Source: a virus
Virus genome (UHGV): UHGV-1579666
DNA: 17,021 bases
Strand: one strand, 5' to 3'
In this document: one piece after another, positions 1 to 17,021 of the stretch
Layout of the letters: every line of letters begins with the position of its first letter
Numbering within the stretch: the first letter of the stretch is position 1
Program-made: the position numbers and the translations under genes
Notes under the pieces: generated by a model
Database searches by the model: none
What the model was told of the DNA's origin: nothing
The model's input: the letters and a program-made list of their open reading frames with translations, nothing else

Positions 1-170
1 AGATGTTATGCCGGGGCGGCGGGCGCATTCAAAAACCATCGCTCGCAACCTGTCGACGGGAAGTTGACGAAATCCTCAATGCCTCGTTGTTTATGATTTA
101 CCCGGTTCTGGATAGTGCGTTTAAAAACCGGAAACGTGTAGAGAAAATTAAACATGTAGCATAGAACGTG

Positions 171-205
171 TTGACATCATTGAGCAAATGAGCAACACTA
201 TTCGC
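171..205 (+). promoter_or_regulatory. Candidate late promoter (pR-prime-like): TTGACA -35 hexamer at 171-176 with only weak -10 candidates downstream
   Basis: Perfect TTGACA at 171-176; position upstream of a terminator and the lysis genes mirrors the lambdoid pR-prime/tR-prime arrangement. No convincing TATAAT-like -10 at 17 bp spacing. Confidence 0.3.
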
Positions 206-210
206 ATAAG

Positions 211-251
211 CTGCCGTTAGTGACTCTTAAGTTGCAACGGTGGCTTTTTTT
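211..251 (+). terminator. Intrinsic terminator-like hairpin followed by a 7-T run (tR-prime-like)
   Basis: ctgccgtt (211-218) pairs with aacggtgg (236-243), including two G-U wobbles, then TTTTTTT at 245-251. Confidence 0.5.
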
Positions 252-255
252 ATTT

Positions 256-330
256 GGGTCAGTCGTATAAAGGTCATTACGGAAGGCTGTTAACCTTCTT
301 ATCGTGGCTCGATCCCACGCTGTCCCGCCA
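256..330 (+). tRNA. tRNA-like gene, anticodon GUU (Asn) by manual cloverleaf folding; encoded CCA end
   Basis: Acceptor stem GGGTCAG/CTGTCCC (one T-T mismatch), D-loop with GG, perfect anticodon stem GAAGG/CCTTC with loop CTGTTAA, T-arm CGTGG-CTCGATC-CCACG, discriminator G and CCA at 328-330. Deviations: C at position 54, acceptor mismatch at 4-69. Confidence 0.5.
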
Positions 331-335
331 AACAT

Positions 336-411
336 GCTGGTTTAGCTCCAATGGTAGAGCGGTCGCCTTGTAAGCGAATGGGTAGCGGTTCAAGTCCGTT
401 AACCAGCACCA
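336..411 (+). tRNA. tRNA-like gene, anticodon UGU (Thr) by manual cloverleaf folding; encoded CCA end
   Basis: Perfect 7-bp acceptor stem GCTGGTT/AACCAGC, D-stem GCTC/GAGC with GG in the loop, anticodon loop CTTGTAA, T-loop TTCAAGT, CCA at 409-411. Deviations: C at position 14, G-A mismatch at 27-43. Confidence 0.55.
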
Positions 412-498
412 TAACTGAGCCGTAGCCACTGGCTATCATGAATTCATCAGTGATAGTTACGCTGCGGCATTCTACGCATGACCTTCGTGAAAGCGGGT

Positions 499-534
499 GG
501 CAAGAGGTTGCGCTAACAACCTCCTGCCGTTTTG
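499..534 (+). promoter_or_regulatory. Strong RNA hairpin (12-bp stem, one A-C mismatch, 6-nt loop) followed by GTTTTG, about 120 nt upstream of S
   Basis: ggcaagaggttg (499-510) pairs with caacctcctgcc (517-528); short T tract follows. Confidence 0.3.
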
Positions 535-653
535 CCCGTGCATATCGGTCACGAACAAATCTGATTACTAAACACAGTAGCCTGGATTTGTTCTATCAGT
601 AATCGACCTTATTCCTAATTAAATAGAGCAAATCCCCTTATTGGGGGTAAGAC

Positions 654-977
654 ATGAAGATGCCAGAAAAACATGACCTGTTAGCCGCCATTCTCGCGGC
701 AAAGGAACAAGGCATCGGGGCAATCCTTGCGTTTGCAATGGCGTACCTTCGCGGCAGATATAATGGCGGTGCGTTTACAAAAACAGTAATCGACGCAACG
801 ATGTGCGCCATTATCGCCTGGTTCATTCGTGACCTTCTCGACTTCGCCGGACTAAGTAGCAATCTCGCTTATATAACGAGCGTGTTCATCGGCTACATCG
901 GTACTGACTCGATTGGTTCGCTTATCAAACGCTTCGCTGCTAAAAAAGCCGGAGTAGAAGATGGTGGAAATCAATAA
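654..977 (+). CDS. S: Holin/antiholin S (class I holin); S107 from the ATG at 654, S105 from the ATG at 660
   Basis: 107-aa ORF beginning [20 protein letters not shown] with the dual-start Met-Lys-Met motif and hydrophobic transmembrane segments; matches lambda S as I recall it. Confidence 0.95.
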
Positions 978-1437
978 TCAACGTAAGGCGTTCCTCGATA
1001 TGCTGGCGTGGTCAGAGGGAACTGATAACGGACGGCAGAAAACCAGAAATCATGGTTATGACGTCATTGTAGGCGGAGAGCTATTCACTGATTACTCAGA
1101 TCACCCTCGCAAACTTGTCACGCTAAACCCCAAACTCAAATCAACAGCAGCCGGACGTTACCAGCTTCTTTCCCGTTGGTGGGATGCCTATCGTAAGCAG
1201 CTTGGCCTGAAAGACTTCTCTCCGAAAAGCCAGGACGCTGTGGCATTGCAGCAGATTAAAGAGCGTGGCGCTTTGCCGATGATTGATCGCGGTGATATTC
1301 GTCAGGCAATTGACCGTTGCAGCAATATCTGGGCTTCACTGCCGGGTGCTGGTTATGGTCAGTTCGAGCATAAGGCTGACAGCCTGATTGCAAAATTCAA
1401 AGAAGCTGGCGGAACGGTCAGAGAGATTGAGGTATGA
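961..1437 (+). CDS. R: Endolysin R (lytic transglycosylase)
   Basis: 158-aa ORF overlapping the S stop, beginning [24 protein letters not shown]; matches lambda R. Confidence 0.95.
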
Positions 1438-1895
1438 GCAGAGTAACCGCGATTATCTCCGCTCTGGTTATCTGCATCGTCGTCTGCCTGTCATGGGGTG
1501 TTAATCATTACCGTGATAACGCCATCGCCTACAAAGAACAGCGCGACAAAAATGCCAGAGAACTGAAGCTGGCGAACGCGGCAATTACTGACATGCAGAT
1601 GCGTCAGCGTGATGTTGCTGCGCTCGATGCAAAATACACGAAGGAGTTAGCTGATGCGAAAGCTGAAAATGATGCTCTGCGTGATGATGTTGCCGCTGGT
1701 CGTCGTCGGTTGCACATCAAAGCAGTCTGTCAGTCAGTGCGTGAAGCCACCACCGCCTCCGGCGTGGATAATGCAGCCTCCCCCCGACTGGCAGACACCG
1801 CTGAACGGGATTATTTCACCCTCAGAGAGAGGCTGATCACTATGCAAAAACAACTGGAAGGAACCCAGAAGTATATTAATGAGCAGTGCAGATAG
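1434..1895 (+). CDS. Rz: Spanin inner-membrane subunit Rz (i-spanin)
   Basis: 153-aa ORF with an N-terminal transmembrane segment and a coiled-coil-like body; start overlaps the R stop. Confidence 0.92.
1654..1836 (+). CDS. Rz1: Spanin outer-membrane lipoprotein Rz1 (o-spanin), embedded in the +1 frame of Rz
   Basis: 60-aa ORF with signal peptide and lipobox LVVVGC followed by a proline-rich segment; entirely inside Rz. Confidence 0.9.
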
Positions 1896-1926
1896 AGCTG
1901 CCCATATCGATGGGCAACTCATGCAA

Positions 1927-2220
1927 TTATTGTGAGCAATACACACGCGCTTCCAGCGGAGTATAAATGCCTAAAGTAATAAAACCGAGCAATCCATTTA
2001 CGAATGTTTGCTGGGTTTCTGTTTTAACAACATTTTCTGCGCCGCCACAAATTTTGGCTGCATCAACAGTTTTCTCCTGTCCAATTCCCGAAACGAAGAA
2101 GTGATGGGTGATGGTTTCCTTTGGTGTTACTGCTGTCGGTTTGTTTCCAACAGTAAACGTCTGTTGAGCACATCCTGTAATAAGCATTGCCAGAGCGGCA
2201 GAAAACAACATTTTTTTCAT
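1927..2220 (-). CDS. bor: Bor outer-membrane lipoprotein (serum-resistance lysogenic conversion protein), 97 aa
   Basis: Minus-strand ORF; start taken at MKKMLFSAALAMLITGC (lipobox LITGC) with an AGGA Shine-Dalgarno upstream. The ORF track's longer 113-aa version has 16 extra N-terminal residues and no better ribosome-binding site. Confidence 0.9.
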   Translation of the reverse strand: MKKMLFSAALAMLITGCAQQTFTVGNKPTAVTPKETITHHFFVSGIGQEKTVDAAKICGGAENVVKTETQQTFVNGLLGFITLGIYTPLEARVYCSQ

Positions 2221-2578
2221 CTTATTATCCTGCATTGTTAAAAACGGCAGAATCCTATGTGACAACAATTAAACGATAGTTAAATGGATTGATGAAAATT
2301 AAAACTATATAGGTGTACGCTCAGACTATTGGAGGAAGTTGGGGACACTCAGAATCCTGTGGAATGAAATAAACCGCTCTATCAGTCTATTACCCTTTTA
2401 GCTGCGCTGTATCGTCGCCGTATTCCCGCATTAACCATGACCGTAGCCCGACGGGGAATTCCTTCTGCGTGAGTGTGCGGGAATAATCAAAAACGATGCA
2501 CACCGGGGTTACCGGGTACACATATTTCATCATGCCAGCGAGTCCGGTTCTGGCACGGAAGAAACCGGACGTTATGAT

Positions 2579-2989
2579 TTAGTGCGGAAATATTTGTGTA
2601 GTGTTCTGAATGTTCTCAGTAAAGAGTAATGAATTATCAAAGGTATAGTAATACCTTTTGTTTTCGTGGATATTTGTAATCCATCTGAAAACCCCTGCTG
2701 TAGCAAGATTTTTCCTGTATTCGTAAAATGATAACTCTCCTGATTTGAATCCTTTTAAGGTGGCTTCTATAAGGCATTTATTTTTTGAAAATCTTACATT
2801 TACAACCTTACCCTGTCCTTTTATTAAAACCGTATTATCGTTTTCAAGAACAAGATGAATATTCTCTGTGGCTAAATAGTAAATGTAATGTGAGACATTG
2901 TGACGTTTTAGTTCAGAATAAAACCAGTGATAGTTTAAATTATTTCGCACTTTATCGAATATTTGTTTAAAAATGGCAACCTGAGCCAT
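2579..2989 (-). CDS. Hypothetical AT-rich accessory protein, DUF1398/YbcV-like (family assignment from memory); about 136 aa from the second Met
   Basis: Minus-strand ORF 2579-3004. A GGAAGG Shine-Dalgarno precedes the second ATG (protein [14 protein letters not shown]...), so start placed at 2989; the first ATG at 3004 is also possible. N/K/Y/I-rich composition. Confidence 0.6.
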
Positions 2990-3046
2990 TGTAGTACCTT
3001 CCATGTGATATGAGGGTACCTAGTCTGCACGATTATCTAAATTGCT

Positions 3047-3280
3047 TCAATCTGGTCTGACCTGCTTTCTGAGCAATTCAGTAATGTCACTCTTTTCTTT
3101 GTTTGCTTCAGGCGAAACTCTTTTTTCTGAGCACAGTCTCCGGCGGCAGGCTTCAATGACCCAGGCTGAGAAATTCCCGGACCCTTTTTGATCAAGAGCG
3201 ATGTTAATTTGTTCAATCATTTGGTTAGGAAAGCGGATGTTGCGGGTTGTTGTTCTGCGGGTTCTGTTCTTCGTTGACAT
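3047..3280 (-). CDS. Small basic protein with a ribbon-helix-helix-like core, YlcI/DUF3950-like (from memory); putative DNA-binding regulator
   Basis: 77-aa minus-strand ORF with a basic N-terminus (MSTKNRTRRTTTRN) followed by IRFPNQMIEQINIALDQKGSGNFSAWVIEACRRRL, which has the strand-helix-helix pattern of Arc/CopG-type proteins. Lies 42-57 nt upstream of the DUF1398-like gene on the same strand. Confidence 0.55.
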   Translation of the reverse strand: MSTKNRTRRTTTRNIRFPNQMIEQINIALDQKGSGNFSAWVIEACRRRLCSEKRVSPEANKEKSDITELLRKQVRPD

Positions 3281-3449
3281 GAGGTTGCCCTGTATTCAGT
3301 GTCGCTGATTTGTATTGTCTGAAGTTGTTTTTACGTTAAGTTGATGCAGATCAATTAATACGATACCTGCGTCATAATTGATTATTTGACGTGGTTTGAT
3401 GGCGTAGATGCACGTTGTGACATGCAGATGATAATTATTATCATTTTGC

Positions 3450-3668
3450 GGGTCCTTTCCGGCGATCCGACAGGTTACGGGGCGGCGACCTCGCGGGTTT
3501 TCGCTATTTATGAAAATTTTCCGGTTTAAGGCGTTTCCGTTCTTCTTCGTCGTAACTTAATGTTTTTATTTAAAATACCCCCTGAAAAGAAAGGAAACGA
3601 CAGGTGCTGAAAACGGGCTTTTTGGCCTCTGTCGTTTCCTTTCTCTGTTTTTGTCCGTGGAATGAACA
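3450..3668 (+). other. cos: cos region: cosQ (GGGTCCT, 3450-3456), cosN (3480-3491), cosB with R3/I1/R2/R1 elements (about 3492-3668)
   Basis: GGGCGGCGACCT at 3480-3491 is the lambda 12-nt cohesive-end sequence; GGGTCCT lies about 24 bp upstream; repeated CGTTTCC-type elements in both orientations (about 3531-3549, 3589-3603, 3629-3645) flank an AT-rich stretch, directly upstream of Nu1. Confidence 0.9.
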
Positions 3669-4188
3669 ATGGAAGTCAACAAAAAGCAGCTGGCTGACAT
3701 TTTCGGTGCGAGTATCCGTACCATTCAGAACTGGCAGGAACAGGGAATGCCCGTTCTGCGAGGCGGTGGCAAGGGTAATGAGGTGCTTTATGACTCTGCC
3801 GCCGTTATAAGATGGTATGCCGAAAGGGATGCTGAAATTGAGAACGAAAAGCTGCGCCGGGAAGTTGAAGAACTGCGGCAGGCCAGCGAGACAGATCTCC
3901 AGCCAGGGACTATTGAGTACGAACGCCATCGACTTACGCGTGCGCAGGCCGACGCACAGGAGCTGAAAAATGCCAGAGACTCCGCTGAAGTGGTGGAAAC
4001 CGCATTCTGTACTTTCGTGCTGTCGCGGATCGCAGGTGAAATTGCCAGTATTCTCGACGGGATCCCCCTGTCGGTGCAGCGGCGTTTTCCGGAACTGGAA
4101 AACCGACATGTTGATTTCCTGAAACGGGATATCATCAAAGCCATGAACAAAGCAGCCGCGCTGGATGAACTGATACCGGGGTTGCTGA

Positions 4189-4214
<26 letters not shown>
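3669..4214 (+). CDS. nu1: Terminase small subunit Nu1
   Basis: 181-aa ORF beginning MEVNKKQLADIFGASIRTIQNWQEQGMPV (winged helix-turn-helix N-terminus), immediately downstream of cosB. Confidence 0.95.
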
Positions 4215-7895
<3,681 letters not shown>

Positions 7896-7915
<20 letters not shown>

Positions 7916-9215
7916 TCTCCCGCATATTGCCAGCATGGCCTTTAATGAGCCGCTGATGCTTGAACCCGCCTATGCGCGGGTTTTCTTTTGTGCGCTTGCA
8001 GGCCAGCTTGGGATCAGTCGCCTGACGGATGCGGTGTCCGGCGACAGCCTGACTGCCGGAGAGGCACCCGCGGCGCTGGCGTTATCCGGTGATGATGACG
8101 GACCACGACAGGCCCGCAGTTATCAGGTCATGAACGGCATCGCCGTGCTGCCGGTGTCCGGCACGCTGGTCAGCCGGACGCGGGCGCTGCAGCCGTATTC
8201 GGGGATGACCGGTTACAACGGCATTATCGCCCGTCTGCAACAGGCTGCCAGCGATCCGATGGTGGACGGCATTCTGCTGGATATGGACACACCGGGCGGG
8301 ATGGTGGCGGGAGCATTTGACTGTGCTGACATCATCGCCCGTGTGCGAGACATAAAACCGGTATGGGCGCTGGCCAACGACATGAACTGCAGTGCAGGTC
8401 AGCTGCTTGCCAGTGCCGCCTCCCGGCGTCTGGTCACGCAGACCGCCCGGACAGGCTCCATCGGCGTCATGATGGCTCACAGTAATTACGGTGCTGCGCT
8501 GGAGAAACAGGGCGTGGAAATCACGCTGATTTACAGCGGCAGCCATAAGGTGGATGGCAACCCCTACAGCCATCTACCGGATGATGTCCGGGAAACACTG
8601 CAGTCCCGGATGGATGCAACCCGCCAGATGTTTGCGCAGAAGGTGTCGGCATATACCGGCCTGTCCGTGCAGGCTGTGCTGGATACCGAGGCTGCAGTGT
8701 ACAGCGGTCAGGAGGCCATTGATGCCGGACTGGCTGATGAACTTGTTAACAGCACCGATGCGATCACCGTCATGCGTGATGCACTGGATGCACGTAAATC
8801 CCGTCTCTCAGGAGGGCGAATGACCAAAGAGACTCAATCAACAACTGTTTCAGCCACTGCTTCGCAGGCTGACGTTACTGACGTGGTGCCAGCGACGGAG
8901 GGCGAAAACGCCAGCGCGGCGCAGCCGGACGTGAACGCGCAGATCACCGCTGCGGTTGCGGCAGAAAACAGCCGCATTATGGGGATCCTCAACTGTGAGG
9001 AGGCTCACGGACGCGAAGAACAGGCACGCGTGCTGGCAGAAACCCCCGGTATGACCGTGGAAACGGCCCGCCGCATTCTGGCAGCTGCACCACAGAGTGC
9101 ACAGGCGCGCAGTGACACTGCGCTGGATCGTCTGATGCAGGGGGCACCGGCACCGCTGGCTGCAGGTAACCCGGCATCTGATGCCGTTAACGATTTGCTG
9201 AACACACCAGTGTAA
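7896..9215 (+). CDS. C: Head maturation protease C (ClpP/S49-like), GTG start
   Basis: GTG at 7896 preceded by GGAGGAGAAGA gives a 439-aa product beginning VTAELRNLPHIASMAFNEPLM; overlaps the B 3' end by 20 nt. The ORF track's upstream ATG at 7761 lies inside B and is not used. Confidence 0.9.
8610..9215 (+). CDS. nu3: Scaffolding protein Nu3, in-frame internal start within C
   Basis: ATG at 8610 in the C frame (MDATRQMFAQKV...), same stop as C; 201 aa, the lambda nested C/Nu3 arrangement. Confidence 0.8.
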   Translation: MDATRQMFAQKVSAYTGLSVQAVLDTEAAVYSGQEAIDAGLADELVNSTDAITVMRDALDARKSRLSGGRMTKETQSTTVSATASQADVTDVVPATEGENASAAQPDVNAQITAAVAAENSRIMGILNCEEAHGREEQARVLAETPGMTVETARRILAAAPQSAQARSDTALDRLMQGAPAPLAAGNPASDAVNDLLNTPV

Positions 9216-9224
9216 GGGATGTTT

Positions 9225-9557
9225 ATGACGAGCAAAGAAACCTTTACCCATTACCAGCCGCTGGGCAACAGTGACCCGGCTCATACCGCAACCGCGCCCG
9301 GCGGATTGAGTGCGAAAGCGCCTGCAATGACCCCGCTGATGCTGGACACCTCCACCCGTAAGCTGGTTGCGTGGGATGGCACCACCGACGGTGCTGCCGT
9401 TGGCATTCTGGCGGTTGCTGCTGACCAGACCAGCACCACACTGACGTTCTACAAGTCCGGCTCGTTCCGTTATGAGGATGTGCTCTGGCCGGAGGCTGCC
9501 AGCGACGAGACGAAAAAACGGACCGCGTTTGCCGGAACGGCAATCAGCATCGTTTAA
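9225..9557 (+). CDS. D: Head decoration protein D
   Basis: 110-aa product [17 protein letters not shown]... from the ATG at 9225 (Shine-Dalgarno AAGGG 6 nt upstream); the ATG at 9219 is too close to the ribosome-binding site. Confidence 0.93.
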
Positions 9558-9576
9558 CCTTACCCTTCATCACTAA

Positions 9577-9599
9577 AGGCCGCCTGTGCGGCTTTTTTT
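9577..9599 (+). terminator. Intrinsic-terminator-like hairpin with T7 tract between D and E
   Basis: GCCGC (9579-9583), loop CTGT, GCGGC (9588-9592), then TTTTTTT at 9593-9599. Confidence 0.45.
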
Positions 9600-9612
9600 A
9601 CGGGATTTTTTT

Positions 9613-10638
9613 ATGTCGATGTACACAACCGCCCAGCTGCTGGCGGCAAATGAGCAGAAATTTAAGTTTGATCCGCTGTTTCTGCGTCTCTTTTTCCGTG
9701 AGAGCTATCCCTTCACCACGGAGAAAGTCTATCTCTCACAAATTCCGGGACTGGTAAACATGGCGCTGTACGTTTCGCCGATTGTTTCCGGTGAGGTTAT
9801 CCGTTCCCGTGGCGGCTCCACCTCTGAATTTACGCCGGGATATGTCAAACCCAAGCATGAGGTGAATCCGCAGATGACCCTGCGTCGCCTGCCGGATGAA
9901 GATCCGCAGAATCTGGCGGACCCGGCTTACCGCCGCCGTCGCATCATCATGCAGAACATGCGTGACGAAGAGCTGGCCATTGCTCAGGTCGAAGAGATGC
10001 AGGCAGTTTCTGCCGTGCTTAAGGGCAAATACACCATGACCGGTGAAGCCTTCGATCCGGTTGAGGTGGATATGGGCCGCAGTGCGGCGAATAACATCAC
10101 GCAGTCCGGCGGCACGGAGTGGAGCAAGCGTGACAAGTCCACGTATGACCCGACCGACGATATCGAAGCCTACGCGCTGAACGCCAGCGGTGTGGTGAAT
10201 ATCATCGTGTTTGATCCGAAAGGCTGGGCGCTGTTCCGTTCCTTCAAAGCCGTCAAGGAGAAGCTGGATACCCGTCGCGGCTCTCATTCCGAGCTGGAGA
10301 CAGCGGTAAAAGACCTGGGCAAAGCGGTGTCCTATAAGGGAATGTATGGCGATGTGGCCATCGTCGTGTATTCCGGACAGTACGTGGAAAACGGCGTCAA
10401 AAAGAACTTCCTGCCGGACAACACGATGGTGCTGGGGAACACTCAGGCACGCGGTCTGCGCACCTATGGCTGCATTCAGGATGCGGACGCACAGCGCGAA
10501 GGCATTAACGCCTCTGCCCGTTACCCGAAAAACTGGGTGACCACCGGCGATCCGGCGCGTGAGTTCACCATGATTCAGTCAGCACCGCTGATGCTGCTGG
10601 CTGATCCTGATGAGTTCGTGTCCGTTCAACTGGCGTAA
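9613..10638 (+). CDS. E: Major capsid protein E
   Basis: 341-aa product MSMYTTAQLLAANEQKFKFDPLFLRLFF... from the ATG at 9613; the ORF track's 9586 start adds 9 residues inside the terminator-like T tract. Confidence 0.95.
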   Translation: MSMYTTAQLLAANEQKFKFDPLFLRLFFRESYPFTTEKVYLSQIPGLVNMALYVSPIVSGEVIRSRGGSTSEFTPGYVKPKHEVNPQMTLRRLPDEDPQNLADPAYRRRRIIMQNMRDEELAIAQVEEMQAVSAVLKGKYTMTGEAFDPVEVDMGRSAANNITQSGGTEWSKRDKSTYDPTDDIEAYALNASGVVNIIVFDPKGWALFRSFKAVKEKLDTRRGSHSELETAVKDLGKAVSYKGMYGDVAIVVYSGQYVENGVKKNFLPDNTMVLGNTQARGLRTYGCIQDADAQREGINASARYPKNWVTTGDPAREFTMIQSAPLMLLADPDEFVSVQLA

Positions 10639-10679
10639 TCATGGCCCTTCGGGGCCATTTTCTCTCTGTGGAGGAGTCC

Positions 10680-11078
10680 ATGACGAAAGATGAACTGATT
10701 GCCCGTCTTCAGGAGCTGGGTGAGCAACTGAACCGCGATATCAGTTTGACGGGAACGAAAGAAGAACTGGCGCTTCGTGTGGCAGAGCTGGAAGAAGAGC
10801 TTGATGACACGGATGAAACTGCCGGTCAGGACACCCCTCTCAGCCGGGAAAATGTGCTGACCGGGCATGAAAATGAGGTGATATCAGCGCAGCCGGATAC
10901 CGTGATTCAGGATACGGCTGAACTGGTCACGGTCGTGGCACTGGTGACGCTGCATACTGATGCACTTCACGCCACGCGGGATGAACCTGTGGCATTTGTG
11001 CTGCCGGGAACGGCGTTTCGTGTCTCTGCCGGTGTGGCAGCCGAAATGACAGAGCGCGGCCTGGCCAGAATGCAATAA
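10680..11078 (+). CDS. FI: DNA-packaging/head assembly accessory protein FI
   Basis: 132-aa product MTKDELIARLQELGEQ... from the ATG at 10680 with GGAGG Shine-Dalgarno; the upstream ATG at 10641 sits inside a hairpin stem. Confidence 0.9.
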   Translation: MTKDELIARLQELGEQLNRDISLTGTKEELALRVAELEEELDDTDETAGQDTPLSRENVLTGHENEVISAQPDTVIQDTAELVTVVALVTLHTDALHATRDEPVAFVLPGTAFRVSAGVAAEMTERGLARMQ

Positions 11079-11089
11079 CGGGAGGCGCT

Positions 11090-11443
11090 GTGGCTGATTT
11101 CGATAACCTGTTCGATGCTGCCATTGCCCGCGCCGATGAAACGATACGCGGGTACATGGGAACGTCAGCCACCATGACATCCGGTGAGCAGTCCGGTGCT
11201 GTGATACGTGGTGTTTTTGATGACCCTGAAAATATCAGCTATGCCGGACAGGGCGTGCGCGTTGAAGGCTCCAGCCCGTCCCTGTTTGTCCGGACTGATG
11301 AGGTGCGGCAGCTGCGGCGTGGAGACACGCTGACCATCGGTGAGGAAAATTTCTGGGTAGATCGGGTTTCGCCGGATGATGGCGGAAGCTGTCATCTCTG
11401 GCTTGGACGGGGCGTACCGCCTGCCGTTAACCGTCGCCGCTGA
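11090..11443 (+). CDS. FII: Head-tail joining (head completion) protein FII, GTG start
   Basis: 117-aa ORF MADFDNLFDAAIARADE... with GGGAGG upstream. Confidence 0.9.
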   Translation: MADFDNLFDAAIARADETIRGYMGTSATMTSGEQSGAVIRGVFDDPENISYAGQGVRVEGSSPSLFVRTDEVRQLRRGDTLTIGEENFWVDRVSPDDGGSCHLWLGRGVPPAVNRRR

Positions 11444-11454
11444 AAGGGGGATGT

Positions 11455-12033
11455 ATGGCCATAAAAGGTCTTGAGCAGGCCGTTGAAAACCTCAGCCGTA
11501 TCAGCAGAACGGCGGTGCCCGGTGCCGCCGCAATGGCCATTAACCGAGTTGCTTCATCCGCGATATCGCAGTCTGCGTCACAGGTTGCCCGTGAGACAAA
11601 GGTACGCCGGAAACTGGTAAAGGAAAGGGCCAGGCTGAAAAGGGCCACGGTCAAAAATCCGCAGGCCAGAATCAAGGTTAACCGGGGGGATTTGCCCGTA
11701 ATCAAGCTGGGTAATGCGCGGGTTGTCCTTTCGCGCCGCAGGCGTCGTAAAAAGGGGCAGCGTTCATCCCTGAAAGGTGGCGGCAGCGTGCTTGTGGTGG
11801 GAAACCGTCGTATTCCCGGCGCGTTTATTCAGCAACTGAAAAATGGCCGGTGGCATGTCATGCAGCGTGTGGCCGGGAAAAACCGTTACCCCATTGATGT
11901 GGTGAAAATCCCGATGGCGGTGCCGCTGACCACGGCGTTTAAACAGAATATTGAGCGGATACGGCGTGAGCGTCTTCCGAAAGAGCTGGGCTATGCGCTG
12001 CAGCATCAACTGAGAATGGTAATAAAGCGATGA
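11455..12033 (+). CDS. Z: Tail completion protein Z
   Basis: 192-aa ORF MAIKGLEQAVENLSRIS..., position after FII. Confidence 0.9.
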   Translation: MAIKGLEQAVENLSRISRTAVPGAAAMAINRVASSAISQSASQVARETKVRRKLVKERARLKRATVKNPQARIKVNRGDLPVIKLGNARVVLSRRRRRKKGQRSSLKGGGSVLVVGNRRIPGAFIQQLKNGRWHVMQRVAGKNRYPIDVVKIPMAVPLTTAFKQNIERIRRERLPKELGYALQHQLRMVIKR

Positions 12034-12425
12034 AACATACTGAACTCCGTGCAGCCGTACTGGATGCACTGGAGAAGCATGACACCGGGGCGACGCTTTT
12101 TGATGGTCGCCCCGCTGTTTTTGATGAGGCGGATTTTCCGGCAGTTGCCGTTTATCTCACCGGCGCTGAATACACGGGCGAAGAGCTGGACAGCGATACC
12201 TGGCAGGCGGAGCTGCATATCGAAGTTTTCCTGCCTGCTCAGGTGCCGGATTCAGAGCTGGATTCGTGGATGGAGTCCCGGATTTATCCGGTGATGAGCG
12301 ATATCCCGGCACTGTCAGATTTGATCACCAGTATGGTGGCCAGTGGCTATGACTACCGGCGCGACGATGATGCGGGCCTGTGGAGTTCAGCCGATCTGAC
12401 TTATGTCATTACCTATGAAATGTGA
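12030..12425 (+). CDS. U: Tail terminator protein U
   Basis: 131-aa [23 protein letters not shown]..., start overlapping the Z stop. Confidence 0.9.
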
Positions 12426-12432
12426 GGACGAT

Positions 12433-13173
12433 ATGCCAACACCAAATCCTCTGGCACCGGTGAAAGGGGCCGGGACCACACTGTGGGTTTATAACGGGAG
12501 CGGCGACCCTTATGCAAACCCGCTTTCAGACAATGACTGGTCGCGTCTGGCAAAGGTTAAAGACCTGACGCCCGGCGAACTGACCGCTGAGTCCTATGAC
12601 GACAGTTATCTCGATGATGAAGATGCGGACTGGACCGCGACCGGGCAGGGGCAGAAATCCGCCGGAGATACCAGCTTCACGCTGGCGTGGATGCCCGGAG
12701 AGCAGGGGCAGCAGGCGCTGCTGGCGTGGTTTAATGAAGGTGATACCCGTGCCTATAAAATCCGCTTCCCGAACGGCACGGTCGATGTGTTCCGCGGCTG
12801 GGTCAGCAGTATCGGTAAGGCGGTGACGGCGAAGGAAGTGATCACCCGCACGGTGAAAGTCACCAATGTGGGACGTCCGTCGATGGCAGAAGATCGCAGC
12901 ACGGTAACAGCGGCAACCGGTATGACCGTGACGCCAGCCAGCGCTTCCGTAGTGAAAGGGAAGAGCACCACGCTGACCGTGGCATTCCAGCCGGAAGGCG
13001 CAACCGACAAGAGCTTCCGTGCGGTGTCAGCGGATAAAACAAAAGCCACCGTGTCGGTCAGTGGTATGACCATCACCGTGAAAGGTGTTGCTGCAGGCAA
13101 GGTCAACATTCCGGTCGTATCCGGTAATGGTGAACTTGCTGCGGTTGCAGAAATCAACGTCACCGCCAGTTAA
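12433..13173 (+). CDS. V: Major tail tube protein V with C-terminal Ig-like domain
   Basis: 246-aa product from the ATG at 12433 ([20 protein letters not shown]...); C-terminal region shows a Big_2-like Ig repeat pattern. Confidence 0.92.
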
Positions 13174-13188
13174 TCCGGAGAGTCAGCG

Positions 13189-13611
13189 ATGTTCCTGAAA
13201 ACCGAATCATTTGAACATAACGGTGTGACCGTCACGCTTTCTGAACTGTCAGCCCTGCAGCGTATTGAGCATCTCGCCCTGATGAAACGGCAGGCAGAAC
13301 AGGCGGAGTCAGACAGCAACCGGAAGTTTACTGTGGAAGACGCCATCAGAACCGGCGCGTTTCTGGTGGCGATGTCCCTGTGGCATAACCATCCGCAGAA
13401 GACGCAGATGCCGTCCATGAATGAAGCCGTTAAACAGATTGAGCAGGAAGTGCTTACCACCTGGCCCACGGAGGCAATTTCTCATGCTGAAAACGTGGTG
13501 TACCGGCTGTCTGGTATGTATGAGTTTGTTGTGAATAATGCCCCTGAACAGACAGAGGACGCCGGGCCTGCAGAGCCTGTTTCTGCGGGAAAGTGTTCGA
13601 CGGTGAGCTGA
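13189..13611 (+). CDS. G: Tail assembly chaperone G
   Basis: 140-aa ORF MFLKTESFEHNGVTVTLSELSALQRIEH...; contains the slippery heptamer G GGA AAG near its 3' end. Confidence 0.92.
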   Translation: MFLKTESFEHNGVTVTLSELSALQRIEHLALMKRQAEQAESDSNRKFTVEDAIRTGAFLVAMSLWHNHPQKTQMPSMNEAVKQIEQEVLTTWPTEAISHAENVVYRLSGMYEFVVNNAPEQTEDAGPAEPVSAGKCSTVS

Positions 13612-14027
13612 GTTTTGCCCTGAAACTGGCGCGTGAGATGGGGCGACCCGACTGGCGTGCCATGCTTGCCGGGATGTCATCCACGGAGTATGCCGACTGG
13701 CACCGCTTTTACAGTACCCATTATTTTCATGATGTTCTGCTGGATATGCACTTTTCCGGGCTGACGTACACCGTGCTCAGCCTGTTTTTCAGCGATCCGG
13801 ATATGCATCCGCTGGATTTCAGTCTGCTGAACCGGCGCGAGGCTGACGAAGAGCCTGAAGATGATGTGCTGATGCAGAAAGCGGCAGGGCTTGCCGGAGG
13901 TGTCCGCTTTGGCCCGGACGGGAATGAAGTTATCCCCGCTTCCCCGGATGTGGCGGACATGACGGAGGATGACGTAATGCTGATGACAGTATCAGAAGGG
14001 ATCGCAGGAGGAGTCCGGTATGGCTGA
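13189..14027 (+). CDS. T: Tail assembly chaperone G-T fusion, made by programmed -1 ribosomal frameshift at GGGAAAG (13587-13593)
   Basis: The -1 frame downstream of the slip site is open to 14027 and encodes the T-domain sequence (FDGELSFALKLAREMGRPDW...). The ORF track entry 13593-14027 is this T frame. Confidence 0.85.
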
Positions 14028-16581
14028 ACCGGTAGGCGATCTGGTCGTTGATTTAAGTCTGGATGCGGCCAGATTTGACGAGCAGATGGCCAGAGTCAGG
14101 CGTCATTTTTCCGGTACGGAAAGTGATGCGAAAAAAACAGCGGCAGTCGTTGAACAGTCGCTGAGCCGACAGGCGCTGGCTGCACAGAAAGCGGGGATTT
14201 CCGTCGGGCAGTATAAAGCTGCCATGCGTATGCTGCCTGCACAGTTCACCGACGTGGCCACGCAGCTTGCAGGCGGGCAAAGCCCGTGGCTGATCCTGCT
14301 GCAACAGGGTGGTCAGGTTAAGGACTCCTTCGGCGGGATGATCCCCATGTTCAGGGGGCTTGCCGGTGCGATCACCCTGCCGATGGTGGGGGCCACCTCG
14401 CTGGCGGTGGCGACCGGTGCGCTGGCGTATGCCTGGTATCAGGGCAACTCAACCCTGTCCGATTTCAACAAAACGCTGGTCCTTTCCGGCAATCAGGCGG
14501 GACTGACGGCAGATCGTATGCTGGTCCTGTCCAGAGCCGGGCAGGCGGCAGGGCTGACGTTTAACCAGACCAGCGAGTCACTCAGCGCACTGGTTAAGGC
14601 GGGGGTAAGCGGTGAGGCTCAGATTGCGTCCATCAGCCAGAGTGTGGCGCGTTTCTCCTCTGCATCCGGCGTGGAGGTGGACAAGGTCGCTGAAGCCTTC
14701 GGGAAGCTGACCACAGACCCGACGTCGGGGCTGACGGCGATGGCACGCCAGTTCCATAACGTGACGGCGGAGCAGATTGCGTATGTTGCTCAGTTGCAGC
14801 GTTCCGGCGATGAAGCCGGGGCATTGCAGGCGGCGAACGAGGCCGCAACGAAAGGGTTTGATGACCAGACCCGCCGCCTGAAAGAGAACATGGGCACGCT
14901 GGAGACCTGGGCAGACAGGACAGCACGGGCATTCAAATCCATGTGGGATGCGGTGCTGGATATTGGTCGTCCTGATACCGCGCAGGAGATGCTGATTAAG
15001 GCAGAGGCTGCGTTTAAGAAAGCAGACGACATCTGGAATCTGCGCAAGGATGATTATTTTGTTAACGATGAAGCGCGGGCGCGTTACTGGGATGATCGTG
15101 AAAAGGCCCGTCTTGCGCTTGAAGCCGCCCGAAAGAAGGCTGAGCAGCAGACTCAACAGGACAAAAATGCGCAGCAGCAGAGCGATACCGAAGCGTCACG
15201 GCTGAAATATACCGAAGAGGCGCAGAAGGCTTACGAACGGCTGCAGACGCCGCTGGAGAAATATACCGCCCGTCAGGAAGAACTGAACAAGGCACTGAAA
15301 GACGGGAAAATCCTGCAGGCGGATTACAACACGCTGATGGCGGCGGCGAAAAAGGATTATGAAGCGACGCTGAAAAAGCCGAAACAGTCCGGCGTGAAGG
15401 TGTCTGCGGGCGATCGTCAGGAAGACAGTGCTCATGCTGCCCTGCTGACGCTTCAGGCAGAACTCCGGACGCTGGAGAAGCATGCCGGAGCAAATGAGAA
15501 AATCAGCCAGCAGCGCCGGGATTTGTGGAAGGCGGAGAGTCAGTTCGCGGTACTGGAGGAGGCGGCGCAACGTCGCCAGCTGTCTGCACAGGAGAAATCC
15601 CTGCTGGCGCATAAAGATGAGACGCTGGAGTACAAACGCCAGCTGGCTGCACTTGGCGACAAGGTTACGTATCAGGAGCGCCTGAACGCGCTGGCGCAGC
15701 AGGCGGATAAATTCGCACAGCAGCAACGGGCAAAACGGGCCGCCATTGATGCGAAAAGCCGGGGGCTGACTGACCGGCAGGCAGAACGGGAAGCCACGGA
15801 ACAGCGCCTGAAGGAACAGTATGGCGATAATCCGCTGGCGCTGAATAACGTCATGTCAGAGCAGAAAAAGACCTGGGCGGCTGAAGACCAGCTTCGCGGG
15901 AACTGGATGGCAGGCCTGAAGTCCGGCTGGAGTGAGTGGGAAGAGAGCGCCACGGACAGTATGTCGCAGGTAAAAAGTGCAGCCACGCAGACCTTTGATG
16001 GTATTGCACAGAATATGGCGGCGATGCTGACCGGCAGTGAGCAGAACTGGCGCAGCTTCACCCGTTCCGTGCTGTCCATGATGACAGAAATTCTGCTTAA
16101 GCAGGCAATGGTGGGGATTGTCGGGAGTATCGGCAGCGCCATTGGCGGGGCTGTTGGTGGCGGCGCATCCGCGTCAGGCGGTACAGCCATTCAGGCCGCT
16201 GCGGCGAAATTCCATTTTGCAACCGGAGGATTTACGGGAACCGGCGGCAAATATGAGCCAGCGGGGATTGTTCACCGTGGTGAATTTGTCTTCACGAAGG
16301 AGGCAACCAGCCGGATTGGCGTGGGGAATCTTTACCGGCTGATGCGCGGCTATGCCACCGGCGGTTATGTCGGTACACCGGGCAGCATGGCAGACAGCCG
16401 GTCGCAGGCGTCCGGGACGTTTGAGCAGAATAACCATGTGGTGATTAACAACGACGGCACGAACGGGCAGATAGGTCCGGCTGCTCTGAAGGCGGTGTAT
16501 GACATGGCCCGCAAGGGTGCCCGTGATGAAATTCAGACACAGATGCGTGATGGTGGCCTGTTCTCCGGAGGTGGACGATGA
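14020..16581 (+). CDS. H: Tail tape measure protein H
   Basis: 853-aa ORF with long coiled-coil-rich regions and a Gly-rich C-terminal segment; start overlaps the G-T stop. Confidence 0.95.
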   Translation: MAEPVGDLVVDLSLDAARFDEQMARVRRHFSGTESDAKKTAAVVEQSLSRQALAAQKAGISVGQYKAAMRMLPAQFTDVATQLAGGQSPWLILLQQGGQVKDSFGGMIPMFRGLAGAITLPMVGATSLAVATGALAYAWYQGNSTLSDFNKTLVLSGNQAGLTADRMLVLSRAGQAAGLTFNQTSESLSALVKAGVSGEAQIASISQSVARFSSASGVEVDKVAEAFGKLTTDPTSGLTAMARQFHNVTAEQIAYVAQLQRSGDEAGALQAANEAATKGFDDQTRRLKENMGTLETWADRTARAFKSMWDAVLDIGRPDTAQEMLIKAEAAFKKADDIWNLRKDDYFVNDEARARYWDDREKARLALEAARKKAEQQTQQDKNAQQQSDTEASRLKYTEEAQKAYERLQTPLEKYTARQEELNKALKDGKILQADYNTLMAAAKKDYEATLKKPKQSGVKVSAGDRQEDSAHAALLTLQAELRTLEKHAGANEKISQQRRDLWKAESQFAVLEEAAQRRQLSAQEKSLLAHKDETLEYKRQLAALGDKVTYQERLNALAQQADKFAQQQRAKRAAIDAKSRGLTDRQAEREATEQRLKEQYGDNPLALNNVMSEQKKTWAAEDQLRGNWMAGLKSGWSEWEESATDSMSQVKSAATQTFDGIAQNMAAMLTGSEQNWRSFTRSVLSMMTEILLKQAMVGIVGSIGSAIGGAVGGGASASGGTAIQAAAAKFHFATGGFTGTGGKYEPAGIVHRGEFVFTKEATSRIGVGNLYRLMRGYATGGYVGTPGSMADSRSQASGTFEQNNHVVINNDGTNGQIGPAALKAVYDMARKGARDEIQTQMRDGGLFSGGGR

Positions 16582-16907
16582 AAACCTTCCGCTGGAAAGT
16601 GAAACCCGGTATGGATGTGGCTTCGGTCCCTTCTGTAAGAAAGGTGCGCTTTGGTGATGGCTATTCTCAGCGAGCGCCTGCCGGGCTGAATGCCAACCTG
16701 AAAACGTACAGCGTGACGCTTTCTGTCCCCCGTGAGGAGGCCACGGTACTGGAGTCGTTTCTGGAAGAGCACGGGGGCTGGAAAGCCTTTCTGTGGACGC
16801 CGCCTTATGAGTGGCGGCAGATAAAGGTGACCTGCGCAAAATGGTCGTCGCGGGTCAGTATGCTGCGTGTTGAGTTCAGCGCAGAGTTTGAACAGGTGGT
16901 GAACTGA
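16578..16907 (+). CDS. M: Tail tip (distal tail) protein M
   Basis: 109-aa ORF MKTFRWKVKPGMDVASVPSVRKVRFGDGYSQ..., start overlapping the H stop. Confidence 0.92.
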   Translation: MKTFRWKVKPGMDVASVPSVRKVRFGDGYSQRAPAGLNANLKTYSVTLSVPREEATVLESFLEEHGGWKAFLWTPPYEWRQIKVTCAKWSSRVSMLRVEFSAEFEQVVN

Positions 16908-17021
16908 TGCAGGATATCCGGCAGGAAACACTGAATGAATGCACCCGTGCGGAGCAGTCGGCCAGCGTGGTGCTCTGGGAAATCGATCTGACAGAGGTCG
17001 GTGGAGAACGTTATTTTTTCT
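16907..17021 (+). CDS. L: Tail tip assembly protein L, 5' partial (continues beyond the window)
   Basis: ATG at 16907 overlaps the M stop (TGATG); frame MQDIRQETLNECTRAEQSASVVLWEIDLTEVGGERYFF stays open to the window end. Confidence 0.85.
   Translation, partial: MQDIRQETLNECTRAEQSASVVLWEIDLTEVGGERYFF

Follow-up and report, generated by a model that had tools for sequence, protein, structure and literature searches.

A phage 21-type late regulatory cassette ahead of the tRNA genes and lambda-type late operon of UHGV-1579666

How is the late operon of UHGV virus genome UHGV-1579666 switched on? We analyzed a 17,021-nucleotide stretch of this genome (hereafter, the window), and we conclude that positions 171-255 constitute a late regulatory cassette of the phage 21 type, arranged as the promoter PR', a Q-binding element (QBE), a sigma-dependent pause element (SDPE), and the intrinsic terminator tR', which would work as it does in phage 21. 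We put the probability of this reading at about 0.96. At the level of sequence, all of the features that define a Q21-type late regulatory cassette are present. The cassette is already known: it is the well-studied late-gene switch of the lambdoid phage 21, which serves as the archetype for antiterminators of the Q21 family, and its primary characterization is reportedly that of Guo, Kainz, and Roberts in 1991.

A first-pass annotation had likened this segment to a lambdoid late promoter followed by a Q-dependent terminator, and the comparison holds, as the phage 21 record annotates every element at the same positions (Table 1). The value of the analysis is a confirmed annotation, namely that of a lambdoid prophage whose late operon, comprising two tRNAs and lambda-type lysis and structural genes, lies under a Q switch of the phage 21 type. 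The Q21 crystal and cryo-EM structures were obtained with a switch sequence identical to this one.

Table 1. Features of the cassette and its surroundings (window coordinates)
Feature	Position	Strand	Source
3' end of Q antiterminator gene (Q21 type); codons 3-161, stop TAG 162-164	1-164	+	Q21 identity; phage 21 record "antiterminator"
PR' -35 hexamer TTGACA (consensus)	171-176	+	OL657228 annotation (curated phage 21 record)
Q-binding element QBEu ATTGAGCA	179-186	+	OL657228 annotation; published QBE sequence
Q-binding element QBEd AATGAGCA	187-194	+	OL657228 annotation; published QBE sequence
PR' -10 hexamer AACACT, 3/6 match, 17-bp spacer	194-199	+	OL657228 annotation
Transcription start +1 (A)	206	+	OL657228 annotation; "aRNA" start in AJ237660 is the same base
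SDPE, -10-like TAAGCT(G)	207-213	+	OL657228 annotation
Intrinsic terminator tR'	208-255	+	Fold; annotated in OL657228, Sf6, and Nil2 (Sf6 and Nil2 by homology)
tRNA-Asn (GTT)	256-330	+	ARAGORN; Rfam tRNA 49.5 bits
tRNA-Thr (TGT)	336-411	+	ARAGORN; Rfam tRNA 61.2 bits
Lambda-type S	654-977	+	ORF; Pfam holin S
Lambda-type R	961-1437	+	ORF
Lambda-type Rz	1434-1895	+	ORF; Pfam Rz

Correspondence with phage 21

Window positions 1-460 are 99.1% identical to Escherichia phage 21 (OL657228, the curated record of Feiss et al. 2022, PMC9119081); the four differences all fall inside the two tRNA genes, and positions 140-270 are base-for-base identical. An older phage 21 record, AJ237660, annotates the promoter together with a 50-nt "aRNA" leader that corresponds to window positions 206-255. 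Any transfer of phage 21 behavior to this prophage would rest on the identity of positions 140-270, and of the Q C-terminus, to sequences on which experiments have been performed.

Templates carrying 21PR' from -40 to -1 or from -45 to +34 are transcribed by the sigma-70 holoenzyme (Yin et al., bioRxiv 10.1101/651190; Shi 2019), and the -40 to -1 fragment of PR'21 was used to prepare Q-loaded complexes (Yin et al.). A longer 21PR' template, from -148 to +214, equates to window positions 58-419 and differs from them only inside the tRNAs. On this template in vitro, 21tR' terminates transcription, with a read-through signal that is measurable without Q, and Q21 raises this read-through approximately 2-fold alone and approximately 10-fold with GreB (Shi 2019, PMC6606751). 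Two Q21 protomers occupy the direct-repeat QBE, and the Q torus at the RNA exit channel prevents hairpin formation (Yin et al.). Phages 21, phi80, 82, and P22 all make short terminated RNAs, regulated by antitermination, at their late promoters (PMC7547250).

Only the C-terminal third of the Q gene, its last 53 codons, falls inside the window; the gene continues past the left edge. The translation of positions 3-161 is 100% identical to Q21 residues 110-162 (PDB 6P18, 6JNX) and includes R113, A124, T125, R127, and R128, which are the residues that contact the QBE (Shi 2019, PMC6606751). The Q stop codon lies 6 bp upstream of the -35 hexamer on the same strand. With these contact residues and the exact QBE adjacent to one another, the cognate DNA-reading part of Q sits beside its own binding site. 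The prophage presumably encodes and expresses an intact Q.

The QBE itself consists of tandem 8-bp direct-repeat half-sites with a TGAGCA core, placed inside the promoter spacer between the -35 and -10 hexamers. The phage L paper gives its sequence, ATTGAGCA/AATGAGCA, which was the subject of the crystallography and cryo-EM of Yin 2019 and Shi 2019. The functional C:G pairs of both TGAGCA subsites are at positions -21 and -13, and their mutation impairs antitermination (Shi 2019, PMC6606751). With +1 placed at 206, these positions become C185 and C193 of the window, each of which is the C of a TGAGCA; a start at 206 would be consistent with that published numbering. Immediately downstream, TAAGCT occupies +2 to +7 (207-212) in the initial transcribed region, where it is predicted to cause pausing. 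Sigma-dependent pausing occurs 18 bp downstream of phage 21 PR' (PMC9191641), and in the window a pause would be expected near +18, at approximately position 223. Both the start and the pause position given here for this prophage are predictions drawn from the database annotation and later papers.

We propose that the cassette operates as follows, the steps through hairpin blocking being those shown in phage 21. Host sigma-70 RNA polymerase would start at PR', at A206, as has been shown in phage 21 for this sequence. Sigma region 2 would then re-bind the -10-like TAAGCT, and the polymerase would pause near +18. Without Q, transcription would terminate at the tR' hairpin and U-tract (208-251), and a leader of approximately 46-50 nt would be released. 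With Q21, two protomers would bind ATTGAGCA and AATGAGCA in the spacer and load onto the paused polymerase, and the hairpin would be kept from forming by a ring that one protomer makes at the RNA exit channel. Finally, the modified polymerase would pass tR' into tRNA-Asn, tRNA-Thr, and the lysis, head, and tail genes, a step suggested by gene order.

The promoter and its conservation across Q21-type modules

What distinguishes PR' from a chance match? The TTGACA reported by the first-pass annotation is present exactly at 171-176, but the hexamer by itself proves nothing, because it occurs at chance frequency; the whole window contains two copies on each strand versus approximately 3.3 expected per strand. 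The composite element is far beyond chance: positions 140-270 are identical to phage 21, and the window contains a single copy of the tandem TGAGCA-N2-TGAGCA. TTGACA, a 17-bp spacer, and AACACT, directly 3' of Q, form a sigma-70 promoter layout with predicted activity.

The same annotation had remarked that no clean -10 hexamer is present, and this is correct insofar as the window promoter has no consensus -10; AACACT, at 17-bp spacing, keeps the A at position 2 and the T at position 6. The weakness of this hexamer can be attributed in part to position 194, its first base, with which the downstream Q-binding half-site also ends. A generic promoter-prediction scan, proposed by the first-pass annotation as a check and run here over positions 1-1500, called no promoter-like site; PR' itself was missed because AACACT matches the consensus at only three of six positions. 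Similarly, a simple terminator scan of 1-1500 did not list the tR' hairpin, probably because a bulge interrupts its stem. The silence of these scans is no evidence against PR' or tR'.

A search with Q21, taking one genome per species, returned 41 loci across the Enterobacterales with Q identity down to 49%, from genera that include Escherichia, Shimwellia, Pantoea, Yersinia, Photorhabdus, Xenorhabdus, Serratia, Morganella, Providencia, Proteus, and Edwardsiella. We counted architectural features over 39 distinct modules. TTGAC[AT] lies just 3' of the Q stop codon in all 39; the spacer is 17 bp in 35 and 18 bp in the other four; position 2 of the -10 is A in 38 of 39 and position 6 is T, again, in 38 of 39. 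Two 8-bp half-sites that agree at 5/8 positions or more (>=5/8) are found in 37/39 modules, and TAAG-N1-2-TGC, scored by strict motif match, keeps the window's offset in 34/39. Many relatives carry a better -10 hexamer (CATAAT, AATAAT, or CACTAT) at the position of AACACT, and the half-site sequence is lineage-specific, for example TGAGCA, TTAGCC, TGGACA, or TGGCAC. An intrinsic terminator follows within approximately 100 nt of the presumed start in nearly all modules. Since the register is kept and the terminator stays near the start across the family, a weak -10 and a very short leader are family traits and no grounds for doubt; in particular, the weak -10 and 45-nt leader of the window give no reason to reject the PR' call.

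These observations bear on a simpler account of the segment, in which the hairpin is the terminator of the early-right (Q) operon only and TTGACA is a chance hexamer without promoter activity. Such an account would accommodate the position of the hairpin, 44 nt past the Q stop codon, as well as the chance frequency of TTGACA and the failure of the generic scan to call a promoter. It would not explain why the -35, the 17-bp spacer, the A2 and T6 of the -10, and the half-sites stay in register in 39 modules with Q identity down to 49%, and it conflicts with the sigma-70 transcription driven by the 21PR' templates (-40 to -1 and -45 to +34). We give it almost no weight. That tR' may also stop unmodified transcription arriving from upstream is compatible with the phage 21-type switch, which we continue to prefer.

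One module departs from the pattern. In an uncultured Enterobacteriaceae MAG (L050, approximately 1900-1960), a short deletion appears to have removed the downstream QBE half-site and disturbed the normal -10 and SDPE spacing, and the half-sites agree at only 2/8 positions; this module is probably a defective late switch.

Terminator, tRNA genes, and late operon

The RNA from 206 to 255 folds as a single long hairpin (208-246) with a core closed by the G210-C244 pair, one bulged A, and a 4-nt loop, and with an energy of -20.2 kcal/mol versus a shuffle mean of -8.0 (z = -6.14); none of 200 dinucleotide shuffles was as stable. A run of seven T residues follows at 245-251. The distance of approximately 35 bp from TTGACA to a hairpin with a 7-T tract, as first described, is therefore right. 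The first-pass annotation had also considered the intervening segment, at only about 45 nt, to be short for a late promoter; a leader of approximately 46-50 nt is a documented property of phage 21. This leader is nearly all hairpin, with only two unpaired nucleotides at its 5' end. An Rfam search of positions 1-700 (E <= 1) returned the two tRNAs only, with no family matching the leader. We considered a bidirectional terminator and rejected it upon direct reading of the sequence, since the minus-strand tail, CTTATGCGAAT, is not T-rich.

RNAalifold applied to 13 single-hairpin relatives recovers the window hairpin, with compensatory double changes in 8 of the 16 pairs of the terminator stem. 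Comparison of the region approximately 35-130 nt downstream of each TTGAC, over loci L017-L049, distinguishes two layouts. In the single-hairpin layout (21, Sf6, L, some Pantoea, Edwardsiella), the hairpin is the terminator and its T-run lies at approximately +40. In the two-hairpin layout (Yersinia, Photorhabdus, Xenorhabdus, Morganella, Providencia, Proteus), the first hairpin is without a U-tract and a separate terminator lies approximately 50-75 nt downstream. A consensus fold of two-hairpin leaders from Yersinia, Photorhabdus, Xenorhabdus, and Morganella yielded no consensus structure, the alignment shifting register, and single-sequence folds of the first 42 nt of two-hairpin leaders gave mixed results (z from +0.5 to -4.8, median -1.7). 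Conservation of the 5' hairpin beyond the 21/Sf6 group is unproven.

Could the PR'21 leader (approximately 46-50 nt and constitutive in lysogens), or its 5' segment TAAG-N-TGCCGT...GTG, have a role beyond termination? Many distant modules keep TAAG-N-TGCCGT even though their first hairpin no longer has a U-tract and a separate terminator lies downstream. The RNA might, for instance, stabilize the late mRNA as a 5' stem-loop, help to set the site of pausing and Q loading, or act as a small regulatory RNA resembling StxS. We regard a further role as unlikely, and the requirements of the SDPE and pause site probably explain most of the conservation of the 5' segment.

The tRNA-Asn gene, which begins 5 nt past the U-tract, is the first gene of the read-through transcript. 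With tR' between PR' and the tRNAs, PR' transcription reaches the tRNAs only by read-through. It had been claimed that, if this is the late promoter, the tRNAs and all downstream genes depend on Q. The layout favors such a dependence, tR' preceding the tRNAs and no other promoter-like site being found in 1-1500, but its absolute form does not stand, given the in vitro read-through without Q (PMC6606751). Because that signal is measurable, we infer from the layout a dependence of the tRNAs and late genes on Q that is quantitative and not absolute. By analogy with lambda, polymerase modified by N and arriving from upstream might also transcribe past tR'.

The closeness of the tRNA genes to the U-tract and the Q-independent read-through of 21tR' would also suit an arrangement in which TTGACA belongs to a constitutive promoter dedicated to the two tRNAs, the hairpin acts either as an attenuator that leaks or as a structure stabilizing the 5' end, and the tRNAs are made independently of Q in the lysogen. 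We find this quite improbable. A strong hairpin and U7 tract (z = -6.1) intervene between the start and the tRNAs, and the spacer holds an exact Q21 binding element with the cognate Q gene adjacent. Furthermore, Nil2, SF11, and Pocitis76 have this promoter-terminator unit ahead of stx2 or holin genes, with the Asn and Thr tRNAs absent, and the unit is thus not tRNA-specific. We therefore retain the phage 21-type switch as the explanation of the cassette, with the tRNAs presumably cut out of the late transcript. The phage L paper states that the processing of such tRNAs from the late transcript is not established.

We note several peculiarities of the tRNA genes. The T-loop of tRNA-Asn is CTCGATC, versus TTCGAGT in phage 21, Sf6, E. 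albertii, and Escherichia sp. (changes at positions 308, 313, and 314); at 308, the substitution puts C in place of the near-universal U54. The tRNA-Thr gene carries a single A-to-G change at 361. Among 375 E. coli complete-genome records carrying the tRNA pair, none matches it exactly (best 98.2%). ARAGORN and Rfam still call the variant tRNA-Asn, which may be private or decaying.

Downstream of the lysis genes, Nu1, A through E, H, and M follow Rz on the + strand to the end of the window (ORFs; Pfam Nu1, gpA, capsid E, and tape measure), and positions 409-17021 are approximately 97.5% identical to phage lambda. The change from phage 21-like to lambda-like sequence occurs at 409-412, and the window is accordingly a natural mosaic: the 3' end of tRNA-Thr (411) marks the exact joint between a 21-type regulatory module and a late operon of the lambda type. 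Among E. coli complete genomes, none spans window positions 1-2300, which include the junction of Q21 with lambda S, at high identity; the best reach 93.9-94.7% and carry a different Q-module subtype.

Across the 17 kb, five promoter-like sites were found versus 10.3 expected. Hairpins that resemble terminators and have T-rich tails lie on the + strand within the late operon, as at 7962-7983 and at 10641-10658, the latter immediately 3' of the major capsid gene E. These hairpins are consistent with graded expression or with a need for a Q-modified polymerase that resists termination processively. The lambda-derived region between tRNA-Thr and S (412-560, and especially 497-540) is strongly structured (-59.8 kcal/mol, z = -5.1) and holds the hairpin GGCAAGAGGTTG...CAACCTCCTGCC followed by GTTTTGCC; it looks like a weak second terminator. 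Lambda is said to have tandem late terminators, as reportedly described by Luk and Szybalski in 1983.

Comparison with known late switches

The late regulatory region of phage 21 is the closest known counterpart of the cassette. The two share positions 140-270 without a difference, an identical Q C-terminus, and the same two tRNA genes directly past the terminator. They differ by the four tRNA substitutions and by the genes that follow tRNA-Thr, which are the pinholin gene S21 and a SAR endolysin gene in phage 21, whereas the window has lambda-type S, R, and Rz and the structural genes.

The PR'/qut/6S RNA/tR' region of lambda resembles the cassette in its constitutive promoter, its promoter-proximal sigma-dependent pause, its intrinsic terminator ahead of the late operon, its Q-binding site between the -35 and -10 hexamers, and the short abortive RNA made in lysogens. 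The 6S leader of lambda is approximately 194 nt in length, versus approximately 46-50 nt for the leader in the window. The pause is at +16/+17 in lambda, as against +18 in phage 21 (PMC9191641). Lambda also requires an extra -35-like element, which 21PR' lacks, and lambda Q and Q21 have no obvious sequence homology and no structural similarity except for an HTH motif (Shi 2019).

Sf6, L, and CUS-3 (P22-like), together with other late promoters of the Q21 family, have the same -35, -10 position, and SDPE and a nearly identical terminator hairpin. In Sf6 and L, as in the window, tRNA-Asn lies directly downstream; the next gene is tRNA-Thr in Sf6 and tRNA-Leu in L. In contrast to the window, Sf6, L, and CUS-3 have the half-sites AATTAGCC/ATTTAGCC, an 18-bp spacer, and the better -10 hexamer CATAAT, and the half-site differences match the divergent C-terminal domains of their Q proteins.

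The PR'/tR' region of Stx phages, with its small RNA StxS, shares with the cassette a terminated PR' leader that is constitutive in lysogens. StxS belongs to another Q/PR' type; it is 258 nt in length and is processed to a 74-nt Hfq-binding RNA, whereas the 21-type leader, which has no reported function, is almost all hairpin. We note that Stx2c-converting phages (2851, Nil2; hits H65-H71) carry the PR'-tR' module of the window, 98.2% identical over 150-260, upstream of stx2. In Nil2, an IS285-like insertion and Ile, Arg, and Arg tRNAs stand in place of the Asn and Thr tRNAs.

Finally, the tR' hairpin sequence also occurs apart from the promoter described here. In HK629 (L007, 701-750) it lies past an HNH endonuclease gene, downstream of a differently annotated PR', and in CUS-3 (L008, 687-750) it is annotated as "boundary sequence bsq4" and lies outside a 21-type promoter context. 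Such occurrences suggest that lambdoid modules recombine with one another at the tR' terminator.
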